Part shown: positions 1-50,906 of the stretch, piece after piece
Position numbering within the stretch: position 1 is the first letter of the stretch
Layout of the letters: each line of letters opens with the position of its first letter
Origin: an uncultured Eubacteriales bacterium
GTDB lineage: Bacteria; Bacillota; Clostridia; Oscillospirales; Acutalibacteraceae
Length of the DNA stretch: 64,000 nucleotides
Reading direction: 5' to 3'
Assembly: GCA_964406705.1 (NCBI GenBank)
Contig: CAYOSS010000001.1
Span: 28,903-92,902, forward strand
Translations under genes and position numbers: made by a program
Notes under the pieces: generated by a model
Told to the model about the DNA's origin: nothing
Seen by the model: only the letters and a program-made list of their open reading frames with translations
Databases searched by the model: none

Positions 1-82
1 TATACGAGGATCTTGTAGCATTGGGTGTCGGCAAAGTCAGCGAGGGCAAGAACATTCCCGCTTTGAAGGAGGATTGGAATCT

Positions 83-3000
83 ATGAGTGAGAAAAAGCAA
101 AGCGGTTTGGAGAAGATTCCGTGGATTCGCCGGTATAAGTGGCCGGTGATCGGCGGCGCGGCGGGGGTAATCCTCATCGCGGCGGCGGTGGTGCTGATCG
201 TGCTCGCACCGTGGAAAAAGCCCGCCGGGAGCGATGAGGAGTTCCACTATTGGGACAACGGTGTCGTGATGGCGGAGTCCACCTGCACGTCGCAGGGCAT
301 AATCAAGTACACCTGCGGCATCTGCGGCCTGACCCGCCAGGAGTACCTCCCCCTGCTTCCCCACGAGGCGGACGGCGAGTACCTCCACGACGCCGACGAC
401 CATTGGCACATCTGCAAGAACTGCGGGCGGGTGTTCGACCTCGCGGCGCACAAGTGGAAAGAAGAGACCACTCCCGTCGCCCGCAAGACCGTCACCCGGA
501 CTCACATCTGCGAGTTCTGCGGGGCTAAAGTGCAGGTCACCGAGGACGGCGGCGAGGAGGGTCGCCACGTCGTCACCAGCGACGACTTCGCCACTCTTAC
601 CACTACCGGAAACGGCGACTACCTGTTTGTCCCCCGGCTCGACGGGGCGAATTTCACCGTCCGTAACCAATATGACCAGAAGATCGCCGTGGGCTGGGAG
701 AAGGACCGCATGGGCTACGCGCCCAAGTTGACCGTTCCCGCCGGCGCGGGTAAGATTGCCATAATTCCCGACGGGCTGCTCAAGAGCAAGGCCGAGCTTG
801 AAGCGCTGCTCCGGCAGGGACGCACGGAAATCCGCCTTCAGGCGTCGCTCGAGATAACGGGCGGCAAATGGTTCGGCGGCTCGCTCACCGTGGGCGCGGA
901 TTGGACCGACAACACGTGGTCCGCTGTTACCAACGCGGACGATCTCAAGAAAACCCCGGATGACAATGTCACCTTCCCCTTCACCGCGCGGTTCTCATTG
1001 GCGGATTTGATCGCCAACTACGACCGCGCGCTCAGCGAGGGCTTGTTCTACTTCCAGTTTAACCAGTGGAAGGACGACGTCTACACCATCGCTTTCACTG
1101 CCGTGGAGATTGTGACCGACCACGACTGGGCTCCCGATTGGAAGCGCGACGAGGAAAATCACTATCACCTCTGCCGGATTTGCGGCGCGACGAAGGATGT
1201 CGCGGCTCATACCCGCACCGACCTCACGCACTGCTCGGTTTGCGGCAACATCACCGTGGAACTTTTCACCCCGGACAGCAAGGAAAGCAATTTCGATGTG
1301 AAGTCCGGCGGCAACAAGGAGTACGGGTCCAAGGACCTGAACTCGAACGCCCTATTTAGCGCGAGTTTTCCGCAGGAGTACGGTACGGCTTCCATATTCA
1401 GCCCGGATATGGACTTTGTAAAGCTCCAGAAGCTGGAGGAGATGGGGTACACCGAGGTCGAGTTTCAGATTCAGCTGCGCGTCATAGGCGGCGCGTGGTA
1501 CGATCTCGGCAATTTTTCAATTACCGCGCCCTGGTCTCCGGGCGGCTACAGCGCCCCGAAAAACGCTCTCCCCAACTCGACGGGCCCTGTTACCGTTCGG
1601 TTCTCTCTAGCGAAGCTGTTGGAGAACGCCGATAAGATCAAGAACGGCGAACTGCCCCTATTCGTGGTCTATGTGCAAAATCACATTCCCGACGAGTGGG
1701 CGATGGACATCCTCACCCCTCTTCAGGCGACCGTCGACCACGAGTTTACCGACGATTGGGCCCAGGATAAGGACGCCCACTTCCACGCCTGCTCAATTTG
1801 CGGCGAGGAGCAGGAGGGCACCCGCGAGGCGCACAAGTTCGGCCCCGGCACCCCGCTCGACTGCGAGGTCTGCGGCAGGGTGCACCGCTACATCCTTGAG
1901 CCCGACAGCGTCGCCGGCCACTTGACCGACACCCCCGCGAACGATGTCCCCTCTATCGAGAGGGAGCAGTGGAAGGATACCCTTTACACCACGGCCTACC
2001 CGCCCAGCGAGAACGCGGAGCACACGGGGCAGTACCCGAACGGCACGGGCAAGGTGACTTTCAAAGCGAGCGCGTTCGATATGACCTTGGAGGAAGTCCG
2101 GGAGTTGATCGGGCAGGGCTTTAAGGAAGTCATATTCACCGTGCGCGGGCGCATCATTCCGCCGGACACGGATAAGTACGGCAAGTGGTACCCCGGCACA
2201 TACACAGTGACCTTCCCGTGGGGCAAGGGAAGCTGGAGCGCCCAGACCAACAATGTGTCCGGCGACCCAAACCAGAACAATACCCCCGTTTTCACCGTGA
2301 AATTCTCCCTGGCGGAGTTCGCCGAGCATTATGAGGAAGCGCTTTCCGGCGGGCTCTTTACCGTGTATTTCAACCAGTGCGTCGACGACTGGTGGGCGTT
2401 CGATATCCTCTCCGGGGTTGACGTCACCGTGGACCACGAGGACAGCGGCTGGCTCCAGGACGAGGAGCAGCATCACCGCGAGTGCATCGTCTGCGGCGAG
2501 ATCTTAGACGCTCCGCAGGATCACGTTTTCTCCGAGGACGACCCGCTAAACTGCGAGGTCTGCGGCAGGGTACACCGCTATCTCTTCACCCCGCAGAAGG
2601 ACGCCGGCAACCTGTCCGTTTCTTCCGCGACCGGCAAGTCCGCTTCTTACCACAATGTCTGGGGAGATACCCTGTTCGGGGCTTGTTGGGCGCCCGGCTC
2701 GGGAGATATTACCCTTAAGGCTAACGCGCTCAACTACAGTCTGGAGCAGTTAAAGGAGTTTCTCGCTAAAGGGTTCACGGAGGTCACCGTCACGGTGCGC
2801 GGGCGCATTGTGCCGCAGCCGGATGGACAGCCGGGTCACCCCTGGCACGGCGGTACATTCACTTTTAAGACCCCGTGGGGTAGCGCGTCTGTAGCTCAGG
2901 CTTCGAACCTTGACGGGAAGTCCGGGACGGACGACGATAACCGGACCGGTAATCTGCTTCTTCGGATGTCCCTCGCGGAGCTCGTCGCCAACTATGACAA

Positions 3001-5959
3001 GGCGCGAGACAACGGGTTGCTGTTAGCGAGCTTTGGGGCTCAGGTCGACACCTGGTGGGCGTTCGACATTCTGACGCCCTTCGAGGTCACCATAGACCAC
3101 AACTTTGATACCGGGCACTGGGCGCAGGACGACGACGGCCACTTCCACGCCTGCACCGTCTGCGGCGCGGAGCAGGAGGGCAGCCGCGAGGCTCACACGT
3201 TCGGCGACGATCCGCTCACCTGTGAGACATGCGGCAGGGTGCACAGGTATCTGTTCACGCCGAAGAAAGACGGAAGCAACATGACGGACTCCTCCGAGTT
3301 CGGTGTGCCCTTGATCGACAGGGGCATTTGGGAGGATACCCTTTACACCACGGCGTACCCGCCCAGCGAGAACGCGGAGCACACAGGGCAGTACCCGAAG
3401 GGAGCGGGCACGGTTACGTTCAAGGCGGCCGCGTTCGACAGAGACGCCGCCAACATCAAGAAGCTGCTTGATATGGGTTTCTCCGAGATAGTGTTTTCCG
3501 TGCGTGGGCGTATTATCCCGGCGGACGAGGGCAAGTACGGTATGTGGTACCCCGGGAGGTTCGTGGTGAGCTCGCCGTGGGGCACAAACGCCGTTATCAC
3601 CCAGACTGTCGCCGAGCCCAGTTCGCCCGATTATAACAACACGCCCGTATTTAAGGTGAGGCTCTCGCTTCAGGAGTTTTACGATCACTACGACGAGGCT
3701 CTGTCCGACGGCTTGTTCTCTGTGTTTTATAGTCGCGCGACCGACAACTGGTGGGCGTTCGATATCGTAAGCCCGTTCGAGATTACGGTAGATCACGACG
3801 ACTCGGCTTGGACGCAGGATCTCGACCGGCATTACCATAAGTGCTCCATCTGCGGCAAGGTCACGGGTACGCCCGAAAACCATAAGTTTGTCGACGGCAA
3901 CATCTTCAAGTGCGAGACCTGCGGCGACATCCATTATTATCTGCTCAACCCCGCTTGGGACGGCGGAAATATCGAATTCAACAAGACGTATACTAATTTC
4001 ACCTATGACGGGACTTCCGGCAACACGCCGTACAGCGCCCTCTTTGAACCCGGCGCCGTGGCCGGTGCCGTAGCGCTAAAGGGCAAGCCTTTGGGCTTAA
4101 CCGCCGACCAGCTGCAAAAGCTGCTCGACGCCGGAGCTACCGAGGTTACCGTGACGCTTAAGTCCAGAGTTTGCGGCGGAAAAGGCTGGGGCGGCAAACT
4201 TACCATCGCGAGCCCGTGGGGCAGCGGGTCTTGGACAGCTAATGTTACAAACGGCGGGGAACAAATCAAGATTCGCCTCCCGCTCTCGGAGCTGGTAGCG
4301 AATTACGATAAGGCGCAGACCGACGGCCTCCTGACGTTCTCTTATGATAATTCCGCCTGGGATCGGTGGACGGTTGACATTGTGAAGCCGTTCGAGGTCG
4401 TCGTTGACCATGACCCCGACACCGCCTGGCACCAGGACGAGGAAAACCACTACCATGTCTGCAAGGTTTGCGGCGCGCATACCGACGTCGCCCCGCACGA
4501 TATGGCGGACAACTTCTCCTGCAAGACCTGCGGCACCGTTCACCGCTACCTCTTCACTCCTCAGAAGGACGGGAGCAACCTGACGGTTACGTCGACGAGC
4601 GGCAAGGCTACATCCTTCGCGAACGGTTGGGGAGATTCCTACGTCACTGTACAGGTGGAACCCGACACCGGAGTTATCACTCTTAAGCCCAACGCCCTCG
4701 GTTACGACTTAGCCGCGCTGCAAGCTCTCAAGGAGAAGGGCTACTCGAGCGTTGATTTCAGCGTGAGGATACGCATTACGGGCGGATCTTGGTACGGCGG
4801 CACGATCAAGTATTCTTTCCCCTGGTCCGATACCAAGCGCGATATCGGCACCAAGGTTTCCGGGGAGAATACGGTTACCGACGTGATACGGATCAGTGTT
4901 CCGCTCGACGATCTTATCGCCAAATTCGACGCCGCTTCCGGGACGGGAATACTGAGCGCCCAGTATGTCACGACTGCCCAGAACGACAGCGCGCAGTGGC
5001 ATTTGGACGTTATGTCCCCCTTCGAGATCGTCCCGCCGCAGCCGGAGTTCAGCGACACCAAGGTTGTAAACGGTTCCGCCGGGCCCAACACCGATGTCGG
5101 CGCGGAGTACTCCATCGCGGCGAAGAACACCGAGCACCGTAAGGTGCACTACAGCCTCAACAACGCCGACTGGCAGGACACCCTCCCGAAGTTCGTCCTC
5201 CCCGGCAACTACACTGTCTACTGGAAGGTCGACGCGGACGGCACCCTTCCCGCCTATAGCGGGTCAAACAAGGTTTCGGTCAGGTATTTCCTGCACGATC
5301 TCGACTCAATCACGGGCGTTAAGGGTACATTCGACCTCGGAACGGGCGGATCCGGCAAATCCGAAGGGTCTTCCCAATTTGGCGGGGATATCAGTAGAAA
5401 CGATCGCCACTTCCTGCTGCATTGCCCGCTGCGCACGAAGCCGAAGTCCATTAAATTCTACGCGCCGCTCTTGGTATCAAAAGAGGCGCTGCAAAAGTTA
5501 GCCGATGCGGGCGCTACGAGCATAGCCGTCACTCTGACGGATACGGGTATGCAAGGCGGGCCCGGTTGGGGGTTAAACGGTAAAGCCGGCGCACAGTGGA
5601 CAGCCACCGTCAATGACGTTGTCAGCGCCAACAAGCCGACAAAGGTTACTTTCCCGCTCGCCGATCTGATCGCCCACTATGATGAGATTAAATCCGGCAG
5701 TATGGCGCTCTTCACCTTCGATTACAGCGTGAACATCAAGGACAACGGCTTTATCTACTGGGCCGACCACGTGGACACGGCTGTGACATTTGACATCGAT
5801 ATCAGGGATATAATTGTCGATGACGCGCCTGCCGCCGCGGCGGACGAGGAGGGTGAGGCGCCCGCCAAAGCGCCGTTGAAGGCCAGTGAGACGGGTCTGC
5901 CGGCTTTCTTCCGCAAGATATTTACCTTCTTCCGCAAGCTGTTCGGGCTGGCGAAATAA
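83..5959 (+). CDS. Giant membrane-anchored repeat protein (about 1958 aa), probably cell-surface; no family recognised
   Basis: Track ORF is 74..5959. The TTG at 74 abuts the SD GAAGGAGG (65-72), so the ATG at 83 is preferred. An N-terminal hydrophobic helix WPVIGGAAGVILIAAAVVLIVLAPW follows. There are 8 copies of a ~170 aa domain with conserved motifs (F/L)(S/P)L(A/S)(D/E)L(I/V)A(N/H)YD and G(F/Y)(T/S)E(V/I)xFxVRxRI. These alternate with His/Cys knuckles HxHxCxxCG...CxxCGxxHxY. The C-terminal tail is FFRKIFTFFRKLFGLAK. Confidence 0.8.
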   Translation: MSEKKQSGLEKIPWIRRYKWPVIGGAAGVILIAAAVVLIVLAPWKKPAGSDEEFHYWDNGVVMAESTCTSQGIIKYTCGICGLTRQEYLPLLPHEADGEYLHDADDHWHICKNCGRVFDLAAHKWKEETTPVARKTVTRTHICEFCGAKVQVTEDGGEEGRHVVTSDDFATLTTTGNGDYLFVPRLDGANFTVRNQYDQKIAVGWEKDRMGYAPKLTVPAGAGKIAIIPDGLLKSKAELEALLRQGRTEIRLQASLEITGGKWFGGSLTVGADWTDNTWSAVTNADDLKKTPDDNVTFPFTARFSLADLIANYDRALSEGLFYFQFNQWKDDVYTIAFTAVEIVTDHDWAPDWKRDEENHYHLCRICGATKDVAAHTRTDLTHCSVCGNITVELFTPDSKESNFDVKSGGNKEYGSKDLNSNALFSASFPQEYGTASIFSPDMDFVKLQKLEEMGYTEVEFQIQLRVIGGAWYDLGNFSITAPWSPGGYSAPKNALPNSTGPVTVRFSLAKLLENADKIKNGELPLFVVYVQNHIPDEWAMDILTPLQATVDHEFTDDWAQDKDAHFHACSICGEEQEGTREAHKFGPGTPLDCEVCGRVHRYILEPDSVAGHLTDTPANDVPSIEREQWKDTLYTTAYPPSENAEHTGQYPNGTGKVTFKASAFDMTLEEVRELIGQGFKEVIFTVRGRIIPPDTDKYGKWYPGTYTVTFPWGKGSWSAQTNNVSGDPNQNNTPVFTVKFSLAEFAEHYEEALSGGLFTVYFNQCVDDWWAFDILSGVDVTVDHEDSGWLQDEEQHHRECIVCGEILDAPQDHVFSEDDPLNCEVCGRVHRYLFTPQKDAGNLSVSSATGKSASYHNVWGDTLFGACWAPGSGDITLKANALNYSLEQLKEFLAKGFTEVTVTVRGRIVPQPDGQPGHPWHGGTFTFKTPWGSASVAQASNLDGKSGTDDDNRTGNLLLRMSLAELVANYDKARDNGLLLASFGAQVDTWWAFDILTPFEVTIDHNFDTGHWAQDDDGHFHACTVCGAEQEGSREAHTFGDDPLTCETCGRVHRYLFTPKKDGSNMTDSSEFGVPLIDRGIWEDTLYTTAYPPSENAEHTGQYPKGAGTVTFKAAAFDRDAANIKKLLDMGFSEIVFSVRGRIIPADEGKYGMWYPGRFVVSSPWGTNAVITQTVAEPSSPDYNNTPVFKVRLSLQEFYDHYDEALSDGLFSVFYSRATDNWWAFDIVSPFEITVDHDDSAWTQDLDRHYHKCSICGKVTGTPENHKFVDGNIFKCETCGDIHYYLLNPAWDGGNIEFNKTYTNFTYDGTSGNTPYSALFEPGAVAGAVALKGKPLGLTADQLQKLLDAGATEVTVTLKSRVCGGKGWGGKLTIASPWGSGSWTANVTNGGEQIKIRLPLSELVANYDKAQTDGLLTFSYDNSAWDRWTVDIVKPFEVVVDHDPDTAWHQDEENHYHVCKVCGAHTDVAPHDMADNFSCKTCGTVHRYLFTPQKDGSNLTVTSTSGKATSFANGWGDSYVTVQVEPDTGVITLKPNALGYDLAALQALKEKGYSSVDFSVRIRITGGSWYGGTIKYSFPWSDTKRDIGTKVSGENTVTDVIRISVPLDDLIAKFDAASGTGILSAQYVTTAQNDSAQWHLDVMSPFEIVPPQPEFSDTKVVNGSAGPNTDVGAEYSIAAKNTEHRKVHYSLNNADWQDTLPKFVLPGNYTVYWKVDADGTLPAYSGSNKVSVRYFLHDLDSITGVKGTFDLGTGGSGKSEGSSQFGGDISRNDRHFLLHCPLRTKPKSIKFYAPLLVSKEALQKLADAGATSIAVTLTDTGMQGGPGWGLNGKAGAQWTATVNDVVSANKPTKVTFPLADLIAHYDEIKSGSMALFTFDYSVNIKDNGFIYWADHVDTAVTFDIDIRDIIVDDAPAAAADEEGEAPAKAPLKASETGLPAFFRKIFTFFRKLFGLAK
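1114..5040 (+). repeat. Six tandem intragenic modules of 620-700 nt (Zn-knuckle linker plus ~170 aa domain) inside the giant CDS
   Basis: The HxHxCxxCG codon blocks recur at about 1160, 1778, 2471, 3140, 3830 and 4449. Module starts (V/I)(T/V/I)DH(D/E/N) lie at about 1114, 1732, 2427, 3087, 3787 and 4399. Non-adjacent modules share near-identical stretches (1971-2040 vs 3331-3399; 1861-1895 vs 2551-2587). Confidence 0.85.
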
Positions 5960-6040: not shown

Positions 6041-6127
6041 GCCCCACGAGAGGCGCCTTTTATTGCCGAGGGGGGACCACTCCCCCCTAAATTTTTGAAA
6101 AAATCGCGTTTTTGCCCCTTTTCCCCC

Positions 6128-6186: not shown

Positions 6187-7239
6187 ATGAAGATTGCGGT
6201 TATCGGCTGTGGGAATATCGCGAACGCCCTGCATATCCCCTGCTATATGAACAACCCCGACGCGGAAATCAAGTATTTCTGCGATATTCGGCCCGAGCGG
6301 GCGAAGGCGGCCGTGGAGAAGTACGGCTGCGGCACCGCCGTGGCGGACTATCACGATATTTTGGACGACCCCGAGGTGGAGGCGGTGTCCGTCTGCACCC
6401 CCAACAATATGCACGCCCCCATCTCGATGGACTTTCTCCGGGCGGGCAAGCACGTTCTTTGCGAGAAGCCGGCGGCGCGGGTCTACTCCGAAGCTTTGGA
6501 GATGCAGAAAGTCCAGCACGAGACGGGCAAAATCCTCAACATCGGCGTGTGCATGCGCTTCGACGACACGGTGAACAAGGTTAAGGAGTACATCGACTCG
6601 GGAGAACTGGGCGAGGTCTACCACGTGTATATAAGCTTCCGCTCCCACCGCTCCATCCCCGGGATCGGGGGAGATTTTACCACCAAGGCGGTCGCGGGAG
6701 GCGGCGCGCTGATCGACTGGGGCGTGCATTTCCTCGATATAGTGATGTACTGCTGCGGGGATCCGACTCCCCTTACGGTGACGGGCGAGACGTTCTGCAA
6801 GTTGGGCAAGGATATAGGCGGCTACGTTTACAAGGATATGTGGGCCGGTCCGCCCAAGCTCGACGGCACATACGACGTTGACGACTCCGTGACGGGGCTT
6901 ATCCGCACGTCGGGGCCGGTTATCACGCTGAACGGCGCCTGGGCGCAGAACATCGGCGAGCGGGAGATGTACATCGACTTCATAGGCGACAAGGGCGGCA
7001 TCCGTATGATTTACGGCGAGGACTTTACCGTGTATACCACGAAGAACGGCGCCCTCATCTCCTACAAGCCTGACTTCAACATCGGCGACCGCGGTCAGCA
7101 CGAGATCGACGCCTTTGTGGATTGCGTGAAGACCGGCAAGAAGCTTCCCTCTCACATTGACACGGTCATTAAAACGGCCAAAATGATGCAGGCCATTTAC
7201 GATTCGGCTGATTCCCACCGCGAAATCGTGCTACAGTAA
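6187..7239 (+). CDS. Gfo/Idh/MocA family NAD(P)-dependent oxidoreductase
   Basis: N-terminal Rossmann motif MKIAVIGCGNIANALH and the EKP motif (HVLCEKPAA). SD AGGAGG at 6173-6178. The mirror antisense ORF 6181..7218 has no motifs. Confidence 0.85.
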   Translation: MKIAVIGCGNIANALHIPCYMNNPDAEIKYFCDIRPERAKAAVEKYGCGTAVADYHDILDDPEVEAVSVCTPNNMHAPISMDFLRAGKHVLCEKPAARVYSEALEMQKVQHETGKILNIGVCMRFDDTVNKVKEYIDSGELGEVYHVYISFRSHRSIPGIGGDFTTKAVAGGGALIDWGVHFLDIVMYCCGDPTPLTVTGETFCKLGKDIGGYVYKDMWAGPPKLDGTYDVDDSVTGLIRTSGPVITLNGAWAQNIGEREMYIDFIGDKGGIRMIYGEDFTVYTTKNGALISYKPDFNIGDRGQHEIDAFVDCVKTGKKLPSHIDTVIKTAKMMQAIYDSADSHREIVLQ

Positions 7240-7253
7240 GGAGCGCCGGGATT

Positions 7254-8108
7254 ATGAAAATCGGATTTATCGATTACTATCTGGACGAGTGGCACGCGAA
7301 CAATTACCCCGCGTGGATCAAGGAGCACTCCGGCGGAGAGATCACCGTTGACTACGCTTGGGGGAAAATTCCCAGCCCTCTCACTAACGTCACCACCGAC
7401 GACTGGTGCGAGAAATACGGCGTCAAGCAATGCCGCACCATAGAGGAGGTTATAGAGAAGAGCGACGCGCTCGTGGTCCTCTCCCCGGATAATTGCGAGA
7501 TGCACGAGGATCTCTGCGCCCTGCCTCTACGCTCCGGCAAGCGGGTATATGTCGACAAGACTTTCGCCCCGGACGCCGCCTCCGCCCGCCGCATATTTAC
7601 CGTGGCGGAGGAGTACGGCACTCCCTGCTGGTCCGCGTCGGCACTGCGCTACGCCGAGGAGTACTCTGTCATTAACCCCGACGACGTGCGCTCTGTGAGC
7701 TTATGGGGGCCCAATGGCTACGACAACTACGCCATACATCAGTTGGAGCCTCTTATGATGCTGATGAACGGGCACCCGATCCGCGTGATGACCGCCGGGA
7801 GCGAGTCGGATCTGCTCAATATCCTCGTGGAGTTTGAGGACGGGCGGGTCGCCACCGCGTCTCTCTTCCGCAACGGGTCCCCCTTCATCACCAACGTCGC
7901 GATGGACGCCCCGCGCGAGAACAGGCTGCTCGAGATCAAGTCCGACTACTTCTCCGCGTTTATCGACCAGTTGGTGGATTTCTTCTTCACCGGCGAGGAG
8001 AAAGTCCCCCACGCCGAGACCATCGAGATTATGGCGGTGCGTGAGGCGGGGCTTAAGGCCATGAAGTCCCCGCGCAGCTGGATCAGGCTCGATTCCTTGC
8101 AGAGATAG
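7254..8108 (+). CDS. Divergent Gfo/Idh/MocA-like protein lacking the canonical GxGxxG and EKP motifs
   Basis: The N-terminus is MKIGFIDYYLDEWHANNYP where GxGxxG is expected, and VYVDKTFAPD replaces EKP. Length and position match the family fold. It lies 14 nt after the preceding stop. Confidence 0.55.
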   Translation: MKIGFIDYYLDEWHANNYPAWIKEHSGGEITVDYAWGKIPSPLTNVTTDDWCEKYGVKQCRTIEEVIEKSDALVVLSPDNCEMHEDLCALPLRSGKRVYVDKTFAPDAASARRIFTVAEEYGTPCWSASALRYAEEYSVINPDDVRSVSLWGPNGYDNYAIHQLEPLMMLMNGHPIRVMTAGSESDLLNILVEFEDGRVATASLFRNGSPFITNVAMDAPRENRLLEIKSDYFSAFIDQLVDFFFTGEEKVPHAETIEIMAVREAGLKAMKSPRSWIRLDSLQR

Positions 8109-8119
8109 GGGGAGCGGCT

Positions 8120-8974
8120 TTGGGCAAGTTTTCGCTGGGCGTAATCGCGGACAGTCTGCGGCTGCCTTTTCGTGAGTCGCTTGAGAAGTGCGCCGCCCTC
8201 GGAGCGGACGGGGTCCAGCTTTACGCCGTGTCGGGCGAGATGGCGCCGGAGGCCCTCTCCGCCGCGGACCGCGCGGAGAAGCGGCGGGTAATCGAGGGGC
8301 TGGGGCTTAAAGTCTCGGCTCTTTGCGGGGATTTGGGCGGTCATGGCTTCGCCGACCCCGAGGCGAACCCCGCCAAGGTGGAGCGCTCCAAGAGGATCGT
8401 TGACCTGGCGCTGGATCTCGGCACTAATATAGTCACCACGCATATAGGCGTTGTCCCGGAGGACGAGAACAGCAAGACCTATTCCGTGATGTTGTCCGCG
8501 TGTGATGAGCTGGCGTCATACGCGCACTCGGTGGGGGCTTACTTCGCCATTGAGACGGGCCCCGAGCCGGCCGTGCGGCTGCGGAAGTTCCTCGACAGCC
8601 TTACCACAAAGGGCGTCGCGGTGAACCTCGACCCCGCGAACCTCGTTATGGTCGCGGGGGACGATCCCGTCGTCGCAGTCCGCACCCTGAAGGATTACAT
8701 AGTTCACACCCACGCCAAGGACGGCGTTATGCTACGGCGCACCGACCCCGTGAAGATCTACGGCTCGTTCGCGGGCGACGACTACGGCATCAACCCGGAC
8801 GACTATTTCCGCGAGGTACCGCTCGGCACCGGGAGCGTCGACTTCCCCGCGTATCTTGCCGCGTTAGAGGAGATAGGCTACCATGGGTTCCTCACCGTCG
8901 AGCGCGAGGTTGGGGATGACCCCGCCGGAGATATCGGGCTCGCCCTCGATTTTCTCCGCAAGCTTACAGCTTAA
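8120..8974 (+). CDS. Sugar phosphate isomerase/epimerase (xylose-isomerase-like TIM barrel, AP_endonuc_2 fold)
   Basis: TTG start. Family-typical blocks are present: IVTTHIG, YFAIETGPE, NLDPANL, HTHAKDG, VPLGTGSVDF and GYHGFLTVERE. Confidence 0.8.
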   Translation: MGKFSLGVIADSLRLPFRESLEKCAALGADGVQLYAVSGEMAPEALSAADRAEKRRVIEGLGLKVSALCGDLGGHGFADPEANPAKVERSKRIVDLALDLGTNIVTTHIGVVPEDENSKTYSVMLSACDELASYAHSVGAYFAIETGPEPAVRLRKFLDSLTTKGVAVNLDPANLVMVAGDDPVVAVRTLKDYIVHTHAKDGVMLRRTDPVKIYGSFAGDDYGINPDDYFREVPLGTGSVDFPAYLAALEEIGYHGFLTVEREVGDDPAGDIGLALDFLRKLTA

Positions 8975-8988
8975 TGTAGGAGGAGCAT

Positions 8989-10395
8989 ATGGCGGAATTC
9001 CCGCCCGTCGCGGTTGTTTACGGCGAGGCGCTGAGTGGTGTGCGGAAAAAGGCGGTCGAGGCGCTGAGCTCCGCGGTTTTAGAGTACACCCGCGCCTACC
9101 CCGTATGTGTTCCTTACGGTAAGGAGCCGCCGGAAGGCGCGCTTTTGATGTACATCGGCACCGGAGAGAACAACCCCGCGCTCTCCGCTCTCCCCGGCGA
9201 GCCCGTCACCGACAGCCAGAGCTACCGCATTTACGTGAAAAACGGCACCGTCTACATCGAGGGCGGGGGAGACGCCGGCGTTCTGTACGGCTGTGTGGAC
9301 TTCTACAATAAGTACCTCACCCCGTTGGAGTTCCCCCACGACGACAACCTCTTTGTGCGCAACCCCTTCAGCCTGCCGTTCCCGGATTTTGACTTGCGCT
9401 CCTCGCCTGCCGTTCAGTACAGGGGTCTTTGGAGCTGGGGCCACGTGATATACGACTACCGCGCGTTTTTCGACAATATGACGCGCCTCAAGCTCAACTG
9501 TGCCGTCATTTGGAACGACGCGCTTCCCCTCAACGCCCGCGAGATCGCGGACTACGCCCACAGCTGCGGCATTCGTCTGCTCTGGGGGACCTCCTGGTGC
9601 TGGGACACCGACTGCGCGCGTTTCTCGCTCGAGAATGTTCTCGATAACGCCGCCCCTTTAGCGGAAAGTTACGAGCGGGATTACGCGGGTTCCGGCGCGG
9701 ACGGGGTCTACTTCCAGTCCTTCACCGAGCTCCCTCAGTCGAGCATCGGAGGATACAGCATTGCGGAATCCGTTACCGCGCTGGTCAACAGGACCGCCGG
9801 GCTGATATTTTCCCGCCACCCCGACGCGCGGCTGCAGTTCGGGCTCCACGCGACCTCCGTAAGGGATCAGCTTGGCGCGATTGCGGGCGTGGATCCGCGC
9901 GTGCGCATTGTCTGGGAGGACTGCGGCTCGTTCCCGTTCTCTTATACCCCGAGCCGCCTTGACGATTTTGACGAGACGATGGCTTTTACCGAGAGGATTT
10001 CCGCCCTTCGCGGACCGGGTGAGAAGTTCGGGGCGGTGACGAAGGGCTTTACCAAGCTCGATTGGAGCGCGTTCACCCATATACCCGGCTCCGTCAATAT
10101 CGGCGGGGCGTCCGCCGCGATGCAGGAGGAGCGGCTGAGGGGGCTGCGACGCGCCTGGAGGTACTTCCAAAGCTATTGGATCACCGGCGCGCCCTACGCC
10201 GCGGAGGCGGTGCGCGTCATGCGCCGGGCGAGCGGCGGCGACCTCTACATTATGGCGCTTGTGGAGGATGGTCTGTTCGAGCGGGAAATCCCGTTCCCCG
10301 TGGCGCTCTACTCCGAGATCCTCTGGGACGCGTCTCGGTCTACAGACAAGACTCTCAACGAGGTCGCCCTTCGCCGGAACGTCACATTCGCGTAA
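8989..10395 (+). CDS. Unassigned 468-aa cytoplasmic protein; N-terminus resembles the GH20b/GH67N-type alpha/beta domain preceding a TIM-barrel glycosidase
   Basis: SD GGAGGAG precedes the ATG. The stretch YRIYVKNGTVYIEGGGDAGVLYGCVDFYNKYL matches the pattern I recall for N-terminal domains of hexosaminidase/alpha-glucuronidase-like enzymes. It is followed by YRGLWSWGH...LNCAVIWND. There is no signal peptide. Confidence 0.4.
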   Translation: MAEFPPVAVVYGEALSGVRKKAVEALSSAVLEYTRAYPVCVPYGKEPPEGALLMYIGTGENNPALSALPGEPVTDSQSYRIYVKNGTVYIEGGGDAGVLYGCVDFYNKYLTPLEFPHDDNLFVRNPFSLPFPDFDLRSSPAVQYRGLWSWGHVIYDYRAFFDNMTRLKLNCAVIWNDALPLNAREIADYAHSCGIRLLWGTSWCWDTDCARFSLENVLDNAAPLAESYERDYAGSGADGVYFQSFTELPQSSIGGYSIAESVTALVNRTAGLIFSRHPDARLQFGLHATSVRDQLGAIAGVDPRVRIVWEDCGSFPFSYTPSRLDDFDETMAFTERISALRGPGEKFGAVTKGFTKLDWSAFTHIPGSVNIGGASAAMQEERLRGLRRAWRYFQSYWITGAPYAAEAVRVMRRASGGDLYIMALVEDGLFEREIPFPVALYSEILWDASRSTDKTLNEVALRRNVTFA

Positions 10396-10439
10396 AAGCG
10401 GCTGCGCGAAACCCTGATTTTACATTAGAGGCGATAGTC

Positions 10440-11159
10440 TTGATAAACGTAACGATCTTCAACGAGTTTCTCCACGAGCGCGAGGATGAGAACGTCCGCG
10501 CCATTTACCCCGACGGCATCCATATGGCGCTGAAAGCGGGCCTGGAGGGCGGCGATATAGCCGTCCGCACCGTGACCCTCGACGACCCTGAGTGCGGGCT
10601 CACCCCGGAGGTGCTGTCGTCCACCGACGTCCTGCTCTGGTGGGGGCATATGGCGCACGGCAAGGTGCCGGACGAGGTCGCGGAGCGGGTCGCCAACGCT
10701 GTTCGCTGCGGAATGGGCGCGGTGTTCCTCCACTCCGGGCACCACTCCAAGCCTTTCCGCCTGCTGATGGGCACGTCCTGCAACCTCACCTGGCGCGAGG
10801 ACGGCGACCGCGAGCTTGTGTGGGTCTGCAATCCCTCTCACCCGATCGTGGCGGGGATCCCGCGGTTTATTCATCTTTCGCATGAGGAGACTTACGGCGA
10901 GCCTTTCGACGTCCCGGAGCCGGAGGAGCTGGTCCTTATCGGCAACTTCGAGGGCGGAGAGGTGTTCCGCGCGGGGTGCTGCTACCGGCGCGGGAACGGG
11001 CGGATCTTCTACTTCCAGCCGGGGCACGAGTCGTTCCCCACGTTTTATAACCCCGATGTAATCCGCCTGCTAAAGAACGCCATTCACTGGGCGGCTCCCG
11101 TTTACCGAGTCCCGGAGCTCGTCTGCCCACAGGTGAAGAAGCCGTTAGAACAGCTTTAG
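10440..11159 (+). CDS. thuA: ThuA-domain protein (trehalose-utilisation ThuA-like, class-I glutamine amidotransferase-like fold)
   Basis: Track ORF 10062..11159 overlaps the previous gene. It was trimmed to the in-frame TTG at 10440, after SD AGAGG (10427-10431). ThuA-like blocks: DVLLWWGHMAH, AVFLHSGHHSKPF, FYFQPGHESFPTFYNP and NAIHWAA. Confidence 0.75.
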   Translation: MINVTIFNEFLHEREDENVRAIYPDGIHMALKAGLEGGDIAVRTVTLDDPECGLTPEVLSSTDVLLWWGHMAHGKVPDEVAERVANAVRCGMGAVFLHSGHHSKPFRLLMGTSCNLTWREDGDRELVWVCNPSHPIVAGIPRFIHLSHEETYGEPFDVPEPEELVLIGNFEGGEVFRAGCCYRRGNGRIFYFQPGHESFPTFYNPDVIRLLKNAIHWAAPVYRVPELVCPQVKKPLEQL

Positions 11160-11174
11160 CGGGGCGAGGTTGGT

Positions 11175-12221
11175 ATGAAGAAGAGATTTGCCGTAATAGG
11201 GTACGGCGGGCAGGGCGCGTGGCACTGCGAGCAAATGGCGAACAGCGATGTGGCGGAGTGCGCCGGGGTGTACGACATTTCCCCCGCGAGGAACGCCGCC
11301 GCCGAGGCCAAGGGACTGCGCGTTTACGGCGGCGCGGAGGAGATTTTCGGGGATTCCACGGTTGACGCGGTGGTGATTGCGACGCCGAACGACAGCCACA
11401 GCGAGCTTACCCGCGCTGCCCTTGCGGCGGGAAAGCACGTCATCTGTGAAAAGCCCGCCGAGATGTCCGCCGCCGGGTTCTCCGCGATGAGCGAGGCCGC
11501 GAAGAAGTCCGGGAAGCTGTTGACCGTCCACCAGAACCGCCGCTGGGACGTGGATTTCTTAGCTGTTAAGAAGGTGTTCGCGAGCGGGGAGTTGGGAGAG
11601 CCCATTCGTCTTGAGTCCCGTATACACGGCTCGCGCGGGATACCCAGCGACTGGCGGCGCGAGAAGGCTCGCGGCGGCGGGATGCTCCTCGATTGGGGAG
11701 TGCACTTGATCGACCAGGTGCTCTGCCTGTTCCCCGAAAAAATTCGCCGTGTGTACTGCGTCTGCTCCCACATCACCTCGAGCGAGGTTGACGACGGATT
11801 TCGGCTTGAGTTGGATTTCGAGAGCGGTAAGAGCGCCCTCGTGGAGGTCGGGACATACAATTTCCTCCCGCTGCCCCGTTTCTATGGCCAGTTCTCCTCC
11901 GGGACGCTGCTGCTTCCCGATTGGCGGGAAAAGGCGCGGCTCGCCCGGATGACCGCCTGGAACGAGAAGGGCGTTCTCCCCGTGCAGACGGCGGCGGGGA
12001 TCACCAAGACTATGGCCCCCCGCGACGAGACCACCCTTCATCTCTACGAGATCGACCGCCCGGAAAGCGACGTTCACGATTTCTACCGCAACTTCTGCGC
12101 CGCGATGGACGGCGGCGAGGCGCCGATTGTTATCCCGGAGCAGGTAAGCAGGGTGCTGTCGGTCATTGACGCGGCGTTTCTCTCCGACGAGCGCGGGCAA
12201 GCTCTGCGTGTAGAGTTATGA
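11175..12221 (+). CDS. Gfo/Idh/MocA oxidoreductase, ThuB/YvaA-like
   Basis: Motifs FAVIGYGGQGAWH, HVICEKPAE and WRREKARGGGMLLDWGVHLIDQ. It lies directly downstream of the ThuA-like gene. Confidence 0.8.
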   Translation: MKKRFAVIGYGGQGAWHCEQMANSDVAECAGVYDISPARNAAAEAKGLRVYGGAEEIFGDSTVDAVVIATPNDSHSELTRAALAAGKHVICEKPAEMSAAGFSAMSEAAKKSGKLLTVHQNRRWDVDFLAVKKVFASGELGEPIRLESRIHGSRGIPSDWRREKARGGGMLLDWGVHLIDQVLCLFPEKIRRVYCVCSHITSSEVDDGFRLELDFESGKSALVEVGTYNFLPLPRFYGQFSSGTLLLPDWREKARLARMTAWNEKGVLPVQTAAGITKTMAPRDETTLHLYEIDRPESDVHDFYRNFCAAMDGGEAPIVIPEQVSRVLSVIDAAFLSDERGQALRVEL

Positions 12222-13189
12222 TCCGCCTCGCGACGGTCGGCTCGAGCGGCATTGTCCGGGACTTCCTAACTGCCGCGAGCTCTACCGGCCGCTACAGCCA
12301 CACCGCCGCTTACTCGAGGAGCCTCGAGCGGGGGTTCTCCCTTTCCGGGATTTGCGGCTCTCCCGCGGTCTTCACGGATTACCGGGAGATGCTTCATTCG
12401 GGCCTCGCGGACGCGGTGTATATAGCGAGCCCCAACTCCTGCCATACCGGGCAGTCCCGTGAGGCACTCCGTGCGGGTCTCCATGTGTTCTGCGAGAAGC
12501 CGATCGCTCTCAGCTATTCCGATTACGCCGGTACCCGCGACCTCGCGGCGAGGAAAGGGCTGACGTTCGCGGAGGCGATTATGTCCCGTTACTCGCCCGG
12601 ACGGGTGCCGCTAAAAGCCGCGCTTAGAGACGCGGGCAAACCCGTCGCCGCGAGACTGAACTTCTGCCAGCGCTCCCACCGGCTGGACGAACTCTTAGCC
12701 GGGGGGTTGCCGAACGTGTTTAACCCCGCTATGGGAGGCGGCGCTCTGAACGACCTCGGTATGTACACCGTTCACGCGGCGGTGGATCTCTTCGGCGAGC
12801 CGGAGGGGATTACGGCTTGCTCCGACCCCCTTTCCACGGGCGCCGACGGCGCGGGAGGTGCGTTGCTCCGTTACCCCGGCTTCACCGTGGCGCTGACCTA
12901 CGCCAAAACGGGGCAGTCCGCCGCGCCGAGCGAGATAGTCTGCGAGCGCGGTGCCGTCACGATTGACAGCATTTCCCAGTTTACGGGGATAAAGTACTAC
13001 ACGGCAAACGACTGCGAGGCGCTCTTCGGCTCGCCCGCAAAGACCGACATTATGGCGGGGGAGGCGGTCGCCTTTGCGGACTACGTGGAAAACCCGGCTT
13101 CTCGTAAGGCGTATGAAGAAGCGGCAGACGCGTCCGGCACAGTCTGCAGAGTGATGGACGAGATCCGCCGCGCCGCGTCGGGCGGATAG
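12218..13189 (+). CDS. Gfo/Idh/MocA family oxidoreductase
   Basis: ATGA overlap with the previous gene. Motifs LATVGSSGIVRDF and HVFCEKPIA. Confidence 0.75.
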   Translation: MIRLATVGSSGIVRDFLTAASSTGRYSHTAAYSRSLERGFSLSGICGSPAVFTDYREMLHSGLADAVYIASPNSCHTGQSREALRAGLHVFCEKPIALSYSDYAGTRDLAARKGLTFAEAIMSRYSPGRVPLKAALRDAGKPVAARLNFCQRSHRLDELLAGGLPNVFNPAMGGGALNDLGMYTVHAAVDLFGEPEGITACSDPLSTGADGAGGALLRYPGFTVALTYAKTGQSAAPSEIVCERGAVTIDSISQFTGIKYYTANDCEALFGSPAKTDIMAGEAVAFADYVENPASRKAYEEAADASGTVCRVMDEIRRAASGG

Positions 13190-13301
13190 ACGCGCGAAGT
13201 CGTCGGGCGGTCACCCGGCGGCGCCGCCCAAACGCAGTTCGTCGTGCGGCGTTTCACAGGTTATATCGGCGGGATATTCCGCCAACGAAAGGGGATAGAG
13301 T

Positions 13302-14216
13302 ATGAAACTTGGCATTGTCACGGCGATTTATGACGGGTTCACCTTGGAGGAGACGCTCGACCACGCGGCGTCGGCGGGGTGCGTCTGCGCGGAGGTAGCC
13401 TGCTGGCCGCGGGGCAAGGCGGAGCGGCGGTACGCGGGGGTCAGCCATATAGATGTCGGCGACACCTCGCCCGAATACCTCTCGCATATCCGCGATTATT
13501 GCGGCAAGACGGGTGTGTCCATTTCCGCCTTAGCGTTTTATCCCAACACGCTGGACCCCGACCCGGAGAAGCGCGCGGCGGTCATCGATCACCTCAAAAA
13601 GGTCATCAGGATGAGCTCGGCTCTGGGCGTCAACTTAGTGACGACCTTCATCGGGCGCGACCAGGGCAAGACCGTGGAGGAAAATCTCGAAATCGTCCGC
13701 GAGGTCTGGCCCCCCATACTCGAGTACGCCGGGAGCCTCGGGGTCAAAATCGCCATTGAGAACTGCCCCATGCTCTTCGGCGCGGATCAGTGGCCCGGCG
13801 GGCAGAACCTCTTCACCTCGCCCTCGCTTTGGCGTGAGATTTTCAGCGCGCTGCCCTATGACAATCTCGGCATCAACTATGACCCCAGCCATTTTGTCTG
13901 GCAGCAGATGGACTACATCCGCCCGATATACGAGTTCCGCGACAGGATATTCCACGTGCATTTTAAGGACATCAAGCTCTACCCCGAGCGCCTCGCGGAT
14001 GTGGGCGTGATGGCGTACCCGCTTCAGTATATGAGCCCCAAGCTTCCGGGACTCGGCGATGTGGACTGGGGCGCGTTCGTCTCCGCGCTGACGGATATAG
14101 GCTACGAGGGTGCGGCCTGCGTCGAAGTGGAGGACAAGGCGTTCGAGGGCAGCCGCGAGAGGATCTTACAGTCCGTGGAGCTCAGCACCCGCTATATGCG
14201 GCAGTTCGTAATTTAG
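13302..14216 (+). CDS. Sugar phosphate isomerase/epimerase (xylose-isomerase-like TIM barrel)
   Basis: Blocks KIAIENCP, INYDPSHF, HVHFKDI and GYEGAACVEVED. Confidence 0.8.
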   Translation: MKLGIVTAIYDGFTLEETLDHAASAGCVCAEVACWPRGKAERRYAGVSHIDVGDTSPEYLSHIRDYCGKTGVSISALAFYPNTLDPDPEKRAAVIDHLKKVIRMSSALGVNLVTTFIGRDQGKTVEENLEIVREVWPPILEYAGSLGVKIAIENCPMLFGADQWPGGQNLFTSPSLWREIFSALPYDNLGINYDPSHFVWQQMDYIRPIYEFRDRIFHVHFKDIKLYPERLADVGVMAYPLQYMSPKLPGLGDVDWGAFVSALTDIGYEGAACVEVEDKAFEGSRERILQSVELSTRYMRQFVI

Positions 14217-14262
14217 GGCGCGGGGTAAATCCGCTCCCGAGATATATTGGAGGTAATGTAAA

Positions 14263-15432
14263 ATGGCGAACATCGATCTCAACGACTTCTCCACCAACGT
14301 TATGGCGGAGGACACGACCGTCTCTGCCGGGCGCAAACTGCGCGTCGGCATTATCGGGACGGGTGGTATCGCCGGCAGTCACATCGAGAGCTACAAGAAG
14401 CAGCCCGATGTGGAAGTCGTGGCGGGCGCCGACTTAGTGCCGGGCAAGGCGGAGGCGTTCTTCCGCAAGAACGGGGTGGAAGCCAAGTCTTTCATCGACT
14501 ACAAGGAGATGATCGACACCGTCCCGATGGACGCGGTGAGCGTCTGCACCTACAACCGCACCCATAAGGAATGCACCGTCTACGCGCTGGAGCATGGGCT
14601 TAACGTCCTTCTTGAAAAGCCGATGACGGTCACCCTCGACGAGGCTATCGAGATCCGCCGGGCCGAGAAGAAGAGCGGGAAGATAGTCTCCGTCGGCTTT
14701 CAGCCGCGCTTCGACGCCAATATGCAGATGATCAAGAAGATAGTGCAGTCCGGGGAGTTGGGCCGCGTCTACTATGTGCAGACGGGCGGCGGCAGACGGC
14801 ACGGGATCCCAGTCGGCTGGTCCGAAACCTTCATCGAGAACGACAAGGCAGGCGTTGGCGCGTTGGGCGACATCGGCTGCTACTCCATCGACCTTGTGAT
14901 GAACGCGCTGGGCAACCCGAAGCCGCTCACCGTGTCCGGCACCGCCACGGATTACTTCGGCACCACGCCCGAGGCCTACTCTCTTGTGGGCAAGCCCGAG
15001 TGCGCCAAGAAGTTCAGCGTTGACGACTTCGCCTCCGCGTATGTGCGTCTCGAGGGAGGGGTTATCCTCGACTTCCGCATCGCCTGGTATATGCACCTTG
15101 ACACTCCCGGAGACACCATCTTTATGGGGACCAAGGGGGGGCTGCGCGTTCCCTCCACCGACTGCTGGAACGGCACTTTCACCTCGCCCATGACCCTGTA
15201 CCACGATGTCGCGGGCAAGCCGGTTCAGACTTCCATTCCGCTGATCCCGACCCCCAAGGACGCGCCCACCCTGTTCGACCAGAAGATCCGCTCCTTCCTC
15301 GACGCTATTCTGACCGGCGGAAAGGCCCCCGTCCCCACCGACGAGATCATTTACAATCAGGCCATTATCGACGGGATTTCCCGCTCCAGCGCCGCCGGCC
15401 ACGAGGTCACGGTCGAGATCCCGGAGATCTGA
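14263..15432 (+). CDS. Gfo/Idh/MocA family oxidoreductase with a ~25 aa N-terminal extension
   Basis: Motifs LRVGIIGTGGIAGSH and NVLLEKPMT. SD GGAGG is upstream. Confidence 0.85.
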   Translation: MANIDLNDFSTNVMAEDTTVSAGRKLRVGIIGTGGIAGSHIESYKKQPDVEVVAGADLVPGKAEAFFRKNGVEAKSFIDYKEMIDTVPMDAVSVCTYNRTHKECTVYALEHGLNVLLEKPMTVTLDEAIEIRRAEKKSGKIVSVGFQPRFDANMQMIKKIVQSGELGRVYYVQTGGGRRHGIPVGWSETFIENDKAGVGALGDIGCYSIDLVMNALGNPKPLTVSGTATDYFGTTPEAYSLVGKPECAKKFSVDDFASAYVRLEGGVILDFRIAWYMHLDTPGDTIFMGTKGGLRVPSTDCWNGTFTSPMTLYHDVAGKPVQTSIPLIPTPKDAPTLFDQKIRSFLDAILTGGKAPVPTDEIIYNQAIIDGISRSSAAGHEVTVEIPEI

Positions 15433-15450
15433 GAAAGTAGGTTTTAGATT

Positions 15451-16263
15451 ATGAAGGATTTTCCCGTAGCGTTACAGCTTTATTCCGTGCGCGATGATTT
15501 GCAGAGCGACTTCGCCGGGACGCTCCACGCCGTCCGCGAGATGGGCTACGACGGCGTTGAGTTCGCGGGGCTGTTCGGTCATACCCCCGCCGAGGTGCGC
15601 GACCTTTGCAAAGCCGAGGGCTTGGTCGCCCTTAGCGCGCATATCGCTTACCCCGAGATGATGTCTAACGAGAACATCTTCCGTGAGTACGCCGAGATAG
15701 GCTGCACCTTCGCCGCCGTGCCGCATATAGGGCTCGAGTACAGAACGGGCGGGGAGAAGCACCGCGAGTTTCTGGACAGCCTCAGCGGTCTGGGCAAGCG
15801 TGCCAAAGAGGCCGGCATTCAGCTTTGCTACCACAACCACGATTTCGAGTTCGTGAAAGAGGACGGCGAGTACGCGCTGGACCGCATGTACGAGTACGTC
15901 CCGGCGGAGTATTTGGAGACCGAGCTTGACACCTGCTGGGTGAATGTCGGCGGAGAGAACCCCGCCGAGTACCTCCGCAAATACGCGGGTCGCGCGAGGA
16001 TAGTGCACCTCAAGGATTTCGCCGGGCAGAAGAGCGAGAATATGTACGCGCTGATAGGCGTTGACGAGAACGAGAAGAAGGACACCGGCGGGAAGTTCGA
16101 GTTCCGCCCCGTGGGGTACGGGCTGCAGAACATCCCCGAGATCCTCGCGGCGGCGAAGGATGCCGGCAGTCAGTGGATGATCGTCGAGCAGGATCAGCCC
16201 TCTCTCGGCAAAACTCCCCTTGAGTGCGCCAAGATGAGCATCGATTATCTGAACAGCCTCTGA
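15451..16263 (+). CDS. Sugar phosphate isomerase/epimerase (xylose-isomerase-like TIM barrel)
   Basis: Blocks GYDGVEFAG, QLCYHNHDFEF, IVHLKDF and WMIVEQD. Confidence 0.8.
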   Translation: MKDFPVALQLYSVRDDLQSDFAGTLHAVREMGYDGVEFAGLFGHTPAEVRDLCKAEGLVALSAHIAYPEMMSNENIFREYAEIGCTFAAVPHIGLEYRTGGEKHREFLDSLSGLGKRAKEAGIQLCYHNHDFEFVKEDGEYALDRMYEYVPAEYLETELDTCWVNVGGENPAEYLRKYAGRARIVHLKDFAGQKSENMYALIGVDENEKKDTGGKFEFRPVGYGLQNIPEILAAAKDAGSQWMIVEQDQPSLGKTPLECAKMSIDYLNSL

Positions 16264-50871: not shown

Positions 50872-50906
50872 ACGCGCGGAGCAAAAATTTGAAGGAGGCT
50901 GATATT

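Follow-up and report, generated by a model that had tools for sequence, protein, structure and literature searches.

Eight copies of a rare domain and six putative metal clasps in a membrane-anchored Clostridia protein encoded next to a DUF4838 gene

The 64,000 nucleotides (nt) of contig CAYOSS010000001.1 that we analysed (the window), which derive from an uncultured Eubacteriales bacterium, begin with the gene of a membrane-anchored repeat protein of 1958 amino acids (aa), here called P0001 (open reading frame (ORF) 83..5959; this and all other features given by window position are on the + strand). With modest confidence we read P0001 as a non-catalytic, multivalent glycan-binding stalk that is stiffened by metal clasps and is part of a DUF4838 glycan-utilisation cluster. 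Its ectodomain would be an eight-copy chain of jelly-roll or lectin-type domains decorated with helices, with six clasps of about 45 aa placed between them. The clasps would act as rigid metal staples, substituting for disulfides in a strict anaerobe, and would in this way generate a long stalk. The domains would serve as non-catalytic carbohydrate-binding modules (CBMs). As the last member of the cluster, translationally coupled to the gene of a DUF4838 glycosidase, P0001 would capture a complex glycan multivalently, at some distance from the wall, and would do so in the service of the locus by which this glycan is degraded. A glycan containing N-acetylglucosamine (GlcNAc) would be a likely ligand.

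The initial annotation had described an anchored protein of about 1958 aa with eight domain copies, a Cys-rich head, and intervening linkers, and this architecture is confirmed by the ORF, the hydropathy, and a profile built from the repeats. The profile detects eight copies of 160-185 aa with independent E-values (iE) of 5e-40 to 2e-62, which are D0 (aa 171-345, positions 593..1117, iE 1e-56), D1 (aa 389-551, 1247..1735, 3.5e-51), D2 (aa 599-783, 1877..2431, 1.6e-62), D3 (aa 829-1004, 2567..3094, 5e-61; the modelled copy), D4 (aa 1052-1236, 3236..3790, 1.8e-62), D5 (aa 1282-1441, 3926..4405, 2e-57), D6 (aa 1485-1651, 4535..5035, 1.3e-59), and D7 (aa 1732-1907, 5276..5803, 4.7e-40). The latter is a divergent copy of a "tail type" and is nearest to copies of the related proteins P0011, P0012, and P0013. 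The GFTEV..V.GRI and SLAELVANYD-type motifs that had been pointed out earlier are found in the domain copies. The copies are 32-58% identical in protein and 60-70% identical in DNA sequence, so that the units are old and a recent repeat expansion can be rejected. Only four residues of the domain never vary (one Gly, two Trp, and one Leu), and therefore the domain carries no catalytic signature.

The cysteines of P0001 are concentrated in a single type of motif. CxxC occurs 15 times and accounts for 30 of the 35 cysteines, compared to 0.59 motifs expected and a maximum of four in 2000 shuffled sequences. The six linkers comprise aa 346-388 (linker 1, 1118..1246), 552-598 (linker 2, 1736..1876), 784-828 (linker 3, 2432..2566, modelled as short beta-hairpins), 1005-1051 (linker 4, 3095..3235), 1237-1281 (linker 5, 3791..3925), and 1442-1484 (linker 6, 4406..4534), as determined by the motif and the linker alignment. 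All six have the form DH..W..D...H.H.C..CG-(15-19 aa)-C..CG that had been noticed before; the trailing HxY that was supposed to complete it is missing from linker 1. Across the 12 linkers of the three proteins with the full alternating architecture (see below) the residues H2, H14, C18, C21, G22, H31, C41, C44, G45, and P54 are invariant, while two further histidines are conserved in part (H16 in ten and H48 in seven of the 12).

When the linker profile was compared to the PDB, one chain was significant, the IgA protease of Thomasclavelia ramosa (9qa6_A, E 1e-5). Two occurrences of H....EWK.D...HWHEC..CG...AH in the protease make up this match, which relates the first half of the P0001 linkers to the ZBD/CTD2-CTD4 modules of the protease. 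Apart from this match, the linkers and the head did not hit any Pfam, NCBIfam, or PDB-sequence family above threshold. PHD_4 on the whole protein (18.9 bits, cut-off 30.6) and Zn_Ribbon_TF on the Cys head alone (23.3 bits, cut-off 29) stayed below threshold. The IgA protease is sortase-anchored and extracellular (PMC12237041, PMC12415215). Two papers of 2025 present its C-terminal ZBD1 and ZBD2, which correspond to CTD2 and CTD4, as "metal-associated periscope domains" and as sites where zinc would be bound outside the cell in a structural role (PMC12237041, PMC12415215). The putative sites are of the 2His+2Cys and the 3Cys+1His kind (PMC12237041). Small-angle X-ray scattering revealed an extended rod, which was proposed to project the enzyme off the cell surface (PMC12415215), and the modules were likened to SasG and Aap (PMC12415215).

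ZBD1 and ZBD2 (PDB 9qa6) and the P0001 linkers have the motif H-x(4-6)-W-x2-D-x3-H-[WYF]-H-x-C-x2-C-G-x(7-10)-H in common, and both are small beta-hairpins or sheets that do not have a hydrophobic core. Both belong to exported, surface-anchored proteins of gut Firmicutes, both are proposed to be metal staples from which a stalk is made, and both are modules without a Pfam family; zinc binding is predicted in the one as in the other. By motif and by predicted exported location, the P0001 clasp is thus a member of the ZBD/CTD2-CTD4 type. The two proteins differ in how the modules are used. In the IgA protease, the units are contiguous domains of 70-130 aa close to the sortase anchor, and the protein carries a protease. 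In P0001, one unit and a truncated second knuckle make up a linker of 45 aa, linkers and large domains take turns along the chain, anchoring is by a transmembrane (TM) helix at the N-terminus, and there is no enzyme.

The probable ligands of the clasp can be narrowed down by comparison to the relatives. P0011 (aa 741-860), P0013 (aa 35-245), and P0014 (aa 26-270 and 512-630) contain tandem arrays of the first knuckle, H..W..D...HWH.C..C......H, in which the last His of one unit doubles as the first His of the next. Because these arrays have only two cysteines per unit, a 2His+2Cys site is the best reading for the first half of the P0001 linkers. For the second CxxCG, no more than one or two histidines are conserved as partners, namely H2 and in addition H16 or H48. 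Each clasp, a relative of modules with putative structural zinc, could bind one or two metal ions. Alternatively, the four invariant cysteines of each linker could form an M(Cys)4 centre with Fe or Zn, like that of rubredoxins or zinc ribbons. P0001 would then serve extracellular electron transfer, metal buffering, or metal sensing, and the metal would not be a passive staple. The linker profile does align both CxxCG knuckles with rubredoxins (E 0.003-0.05, below a convincing threshold), and the three further invariant histidines, which are outside a pure Cys4 model, could form a second, open site. However, the two cysteines per unit in the first-knuckle arrays of P0011, P0003, and the IgA protease favour 2His+2Cys, the knuckle spacing of 16-20 aa is shorter than in rubredoxins, the aromatic core of rubredoxins is absent, and the conserved gene cluster does not contain redox partners. 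We therefore regard a redox or metal-handling role as very improbable.

The Cys/His head (aa 55-150, 245..532) consists of one H.W..G..C..C..C unit (C68, C78, C81), one HWHICxxCG unit (C111, C114), and an extra CxxC (C143, C146), and is matched by the linker hidden Markov model (HMM) at aa ~93-147 (iE 4e-5). In addition, the head (HYWDNGVV..STCTSQGIIKYTCGICG..LP..PH) matches the H.WD.G..T...TCT..G.KTYTC..C..T.TE.IPA.GH repeats of P0003-P0009 with E-values of 1e-16 to 6e-4. These are large Clostridia proteins with signal peptides and many tandem Cys units, among them an SLH and 5'-nucleotidase protein (P0005) and a BspA-LRR/fn3 protein (P0006). They have the head unit in common with P0001 and differ from it by the many tandem copies, by three cysteines per unit, and by the absence of the 165-aa domain; the arrays are unnamed in Pfam. 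The knuckles had been regarded as unusual outside the cell. This view has to be abandoned, and the knuckles are not new as a kind, because the modules of the IgA protease and the many-copy arrays of other exported Clostridia proteins are similar. Extracytoplasmic His/Cys knuckles with putative metal binding are therefore not unusual in anaerobic Clostridia.

P0001 contains one hydrophobic segment, aa 21-43 (143..211), which reaches a Kyte-Doolittle 19-mer maximum of 2.86; elsewhere in the protein, the hydropathy scan does not find any window above 1.6. The 20 residues in front of this single TM helix include six K/R versus two D/E, and the 15 residues behind it two K/R versus four D/E, which is a charge asymmetry of +4/-2. 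According to the positive-inside rule, the short N-terminus should thus be cytoplasmic and about 1900 residues should be outside. A signal peptide, a lipoprotein box, or an anchor is present in every relative that has the domain or the knuckles. Based on the flank charges and these export signals, we reject a cytoplasmic orientation, in agreement with the earlier proposal that the bulk of the protein is outside the cell, and infer that P0001 is a type-II-anchored (N-in, C-out) cell-surface protein with the helix as signal anchor.

Like the linkers, the domain does not belong to a named family, as had been suspected. Neither the whole protein nor any of 14 isolated domain copies reached the cut-off of a Pfam or NCBIfam family, and no PDB sequence matched the whole protein or a domain copy as a homologue. 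Designed TIM barrels were matched by the PDB sequence profile over no more than a helix-strand stretch, which does not amount to homology. We modelled linker 3, D3, and linker 4 with AlphaFold2 (277-residue query), which gave a pLDDT score (predicted local distance difference test) of 86.6 and a predicted TM-score (pTM) of 0.80. In the model, the domain is a beta-sandwich of about ten strands with two or three helices, and the linkers are short hairpins. Foldseek searches with this unit against the PDB and BFVD resulted in matches that are nearly all lectin- or CBM-type jelly-roll sandwiches, plus viral capsid jelly rolls. The best ones are EngBF, the sugar-binding domain of Fbs1, the receptor-binding domain of the botulinum neurotoxin heavy chain (BoNT Hc), CBM6, CBM30, neuropilin b1, and CenC-like and ConA-like folds, and legume lectins are also among the matches; the CBM6, CBM30, and lectin matches have E-values of ~1e-2 and TM-scores normalised to the target (TMt) of up to 0.43. 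The fold comparison that had been proposed for a linker-plus-domain unit thus points to a beta-sandwich of lectin or CBM character, but through weak matches. With CBM6, CBM30, CBM32/F5-8C, and CenC-like modules, including the F5/8C module of the GH163 enzyme BT1035, the domain has a predicted beta-sandwich of similar size and the conserved Trp in common. In addition, it shows two traits of CBMs, since relatives have it attached to glycosidases and surface proteins that are not catalytic contain it in several copies. It differs from these modules by two or three inserted helices, by the low TM-scores, and by the absence of any CBM Pfam match.

The domain is very rare. In a HMMER search with a profile of 14 copies against 1.84 billion cluster representatives we found 29 proteins at E <= 1e-3 and four at E <= 1e-30. 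The full alternating architecture occurs in only three proteins, with eight copies in P0001, six in P0002 and the nearly identical P0010, and five in P0011, so that a survey of copy number among relatives, as had been suggested, does reveal variation. P0001 and P0002 are ~35% identical. No relative of full-length P0001 was found among the GTDB species representatives. As a side observation, P0001 and P0010 are both present in the Logan run SRR14209496, and P0002 in its sister run SRR14209495. The DUF4838 neighbours of P0001 and P0010 are ~60% identical, and the community therefore contains either two organisms that are related or two clusters that are paralogous.

Not in P0001 itself but in distant relatives, the domain is appended to carbohydrate-active catalytic modules. 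In P0015, P0025, P0032, and P0036, several domain copies share one secreted polypeptide with DUF4838, with or without GH20b/GH67N, and P0012 combines the domain with GH43. P0037 has a CBM30-like match below threshold (25.4 bits, cut-off 27). Other members of the domain family are encoded next to GH123, GH94, or GH2 genes or next to sugar ABC transporters. In its fusions and gene context, the domain behaves like a CBM and may be one. The initial annotation had guessed at glycan or host binding, and the glycan part of this guess is strengthened because of the gene context and the fusions.

Concerning the gene context, the first 86 nt of the window (1..86) are the 3' end of a DUF4838 gene of the GH163/GH185 type, the stop codon of which (TGA, 84-86) overlaps the start codon of P0001 (ATG, 83-85) in an ATGA. 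A Shine-Dalgarno sequence, AAGGAGG (66..72), lies within this upstream gene, and the ATG is 10 nt downstream of its GGAGG (68-72). The identity of the fragment is known from L082, a public contig with an identical P0001, which encodes at least 275 aa of the upstream protein with a match to PF16126 (E 4.5e-30), and from the similarity of the fragment to five adjacent DUF4838 proteins of relatives (47-62% identity, with four of them at ~60%). Conservation is thus higher among these DUF4838 proteins than among the anchored proteins. A DUF4838 gene is located at most 1.1 kb upstream of the genes for P0001, P0010/P0002, P0011, P0013, P0014, and P0023, and is directly adjacent in five of these six loci; at the P0023 locus two small ORFs lie between. 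The cluster of a Big_2 lipoprotein, DUF4838, and an anchored protein recurs in five further lineages. At the P0011 locus (L083) the three genes follow in this order, with an ATGA overlap as in the window, and the gene order at the P0010 locus (L084) is the same. The P0013, P0014, and P0023 loci have kept the core cluster and have a second, lipoprotein-anchored DUF4838 in front of it.

DUF4838 is the catalytic domain of the CAZy families GH163 and GH185 (PMC10570127). GH163 (BT1035) releases fragments of the N-acetyllactosamine (LacNAc) type from complex N-glycans, and GH185 (Sp_0475) is a 6-sulfo-GlcNAcase (PMC10570127). The Big_2 lipoproteins (L083 3488-4807, L084 151-1437, L085 4921-6264, and L087 4919-6259) have at their C-terminus a domain copy that has diverged (probability of 94% and E 1e-7 in hhalign), a 170-aa stretch of the form ..LSKQELKNYLNLGYTKV..IPLKSFIENYDSY..FGDIYLR, and the C-terminus of P0014 carries the same domain type. 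All products of the cluster are exported except for the DUF4838 protein adjacent to the anchored protein, which does not have a signal peptide (window 1-86, L083 4812-6521, L084 1457-3133, L085 6312-7949, L087 6264-7964, and L092 5245-6906). It may be a cytoplasmic glycosidase. A more speculative possibility is that this enzyme, encoded by a coupled gene, is physically recruited by the anchored protein.

Some other genes at these loci deserve mention. In three clusters, the lipoprotein-type DUF4838 is preceded by a protein of ~1360-1380 aa (L085 1-3024, L087 1-3000, L092 1-2041), which lacks a strong Pfam match and has a faint Bact_surface_Ig-like match in two of the three cases. A scan with the profiles of the domain and of the linker, which covered the parts of it that lie within L085 and L087, did not give a match. 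Upstream in the P0011 locus, L083 2-2857 resembles the GH43 protein P0012 (..GGVWDG.AWVSSSY.I.I.DI.. followed by ..GGHWLRWVR..). Tail-type domain copies and a GH43-like enzyme may therefore be present in one locus together with an anchored stalk protein.

The close coupling of P0001 to DUF4838 could also be explained if the repeats were cohesin-like docking domains, and P0001 a scaffold that keeps partners from the cluster at the surface, for instance the Big_2 lipoprotein or else a DUF4838 enzyme that is secreted. An anchored protein with many beta-sandwich repeats does resemble a scaffoldin, and in addition to the tight genetic coupling the Big_2 lipoprotein shares the divergent domain copy. 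However, Cohesin and Dockerin Pfam matches are absent from P0001 and cohesins are absent from the top 50 fold matches, so that an identity as cohesin or scaffoldin is not supported. Furthermore, inspection of the translations of the neighbours, made by eye and not with a Dockerin model, did not reveal a duplicated Ca-binding, dockerin-like segment, the adjacent DUF4838 does not have a signal peptide, and in the fusion proteins domain and enzyme are parts of one chain, which is how CBMs occur. Taken together, we consider the scaffold improbable.

A somewhat less improbable alternative, which we still judge unlikely, is an adhesin or spacer without sugar specificity. Here the domains would be structural or protein-binding beads on a stalk for cell-cell, cell-host, or biofilm contact, in the manner of SasG and Aap. 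The rod-forming relatives of the clasp in the IgA protease, which have been likened to these proteins, would fit, as would the different copy numbers of the orthologues, the absence of catalytic residues in the domain, and the C-terminal amphipathic helix described below, which could re-attach to the membrane or surface. What speaks against it is that the domain recurs in DUF4838 and GH43 glycosidases and in glycan-utilisation loci, which is typical of CBMs, and that the DUF4838 cluster has been kept although the anchored proteins P0001 and P0002 have diverged to ~35% identity. Periscope proteins, such as SasG, Aap, and the Rib-domain proteins, are like P0001 surface-anchored chains of beta-rich modules that are presumed to form rods and thereby to set the distance to the wall, and P0001 also resembles them in its varying copy number. 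The repeats of canonical periscope proteins are reportedly nearly identical at the DNA level (Whelan et al. 2021). P0001 fails this hallmark with its 60-70%, and its anchor is N-terminal and not an LPxTG motif.

The reading of P0001 as a glycan-binding, metal-clasped stalk has to be held against several observations that do not favour it. The invariant ligands per linker number seven and not eight, and even for the IgA protease the zinc sites are predictions (PMC12237041). Any binding of metal or sugar is putative, in P0001 as in every member of the domain family. In each library only one fold match reaches E <= 1e-3, and the TM-score normalised to the query (TMq) is 0.2-0.3 over the 277-residue query. 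The adjacent DUF4838 enzyme, lacking a signal peptide, cannot simply act beside a stalk on the surface, and the repeats are old, unlike those of canonical periscope proteins. The rod shape, the rigidity, and the nature of the ligand are likewise proposals. A broader claim, that the 165-aa module founds a new CBM family for DUF4838 loci and that the clasps are extracellular structural zinc sites replacing disulfides, which together would define a class of metal-stapled multivalent stalks, is more speculative, and we put it forward tentatively.

The part of P0001 that follows D6 differs from the repeats. A short all-beta segment (aa 1657-1731, 5051..5275) was delimited by the alignment and always sits in front of a tail-type domain in P0002, P0011, and P0012. 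The initial annotation had called it Ig-like. It is indeed predicted to be all-beta with pLDDT values of 75-91, but its PKD- and Fn3-like matches are weak, and an Ig-like character is plausible but weakly supported. Little weight can be given to the fold matches of the tail as a whole, because the confidence of the model is low (pLDDT 62.9). Behind D7 there is an Ala/Glu/Pro-rich spacer (aa 1912-1938, 5816..5896, pLDDT <50) and then a C-terminal, predicted amphipathic helix, LPAFFRKIFTFFRKLFGLAK (aa 1939-1958, 5897..5956), the hydrophobic moment of which is in the 99.9th percentile among all 20-mers of the protein. This helix has been kept in P0002 (LPARIEEFFRRILAALARVFG) and is missing in P0011, and it may attach the protein to the membrane or surface at a second point.

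The transcription unit is closed by a terminator-like hairpin with a T run (6069..6098, hairpin 6069-6088), in line with the terminators that had been noted between P0001 and the operon downstream. This operon (6187-16263) encodes four Gfo/Idh/MocA oxidoreductases, three xylose-isomerase-like TIM barrels, and one ThuA-like protein. Two of its ORFs, 8989-10395 (no Pfam match) and 10062-11159, overlap, and the true start of the second is probably later than called because its ThuA domain begins only at aa 129. A functional link of P0001 to this sugar-redox operon, which had been raised as a speculation, is rejected given the terminator between them and the absence of the operon beside the orthologues P0002 and P0011. 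The relevant neighbour is the upstream DUF4838 gene, of which the window holds the last 86 nt. Further downstream, from 17328 to 54080, the window is ordinary chromosome with dnaG, recJ, relA/spoT, a MurJ/MATE-like flippase, glgA, glgB, and an M16C peptidase, and with a 1063-aa GH2 protein at 50889-54080. The identity of RelA to that of any GTDB species representative does not exceed 66%, with matches in Oscillospiraceae, Acutalibacteraceae, and "Clostridia bacterium" metagenome-assembled genomes from animal and human gut, and the lineage is thus poorly sampled. The host is an uncultured, strictly anaerobic, monoderm gut Firmicute, an Oscillospirales-like member of the Clostridia.

Reading P0001 in this way would not overturn any established view. 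The kind of clasp is already known from the IgA protease, and modular, repeat-built surface proteins that bind glycans are known as well. The novel parts are the CBM-like domain family, which is probably new, and the new use that is probably made of a recently recognised putative metal clasp. If the glycan-binding stalk is true, the 165-aa domain would be a candidate for a new CBM family and would offer a handle on DUF4838 loci, which are largely unexplored in gut Clostridia. DUF4838 underlies the recently founded families GH163 and GH185, whose substrates are complex N-glycans and sulfated GlcNAc. The His/Cys clasp of the IgA protease would be a module that anaerobic Firmicutes use generally in the proteins they export, employed here as a repeated staple between domains, and a 45-aa clasp that is placed between well-folding domains would provide a convenient test system for extracellular zinc binding.

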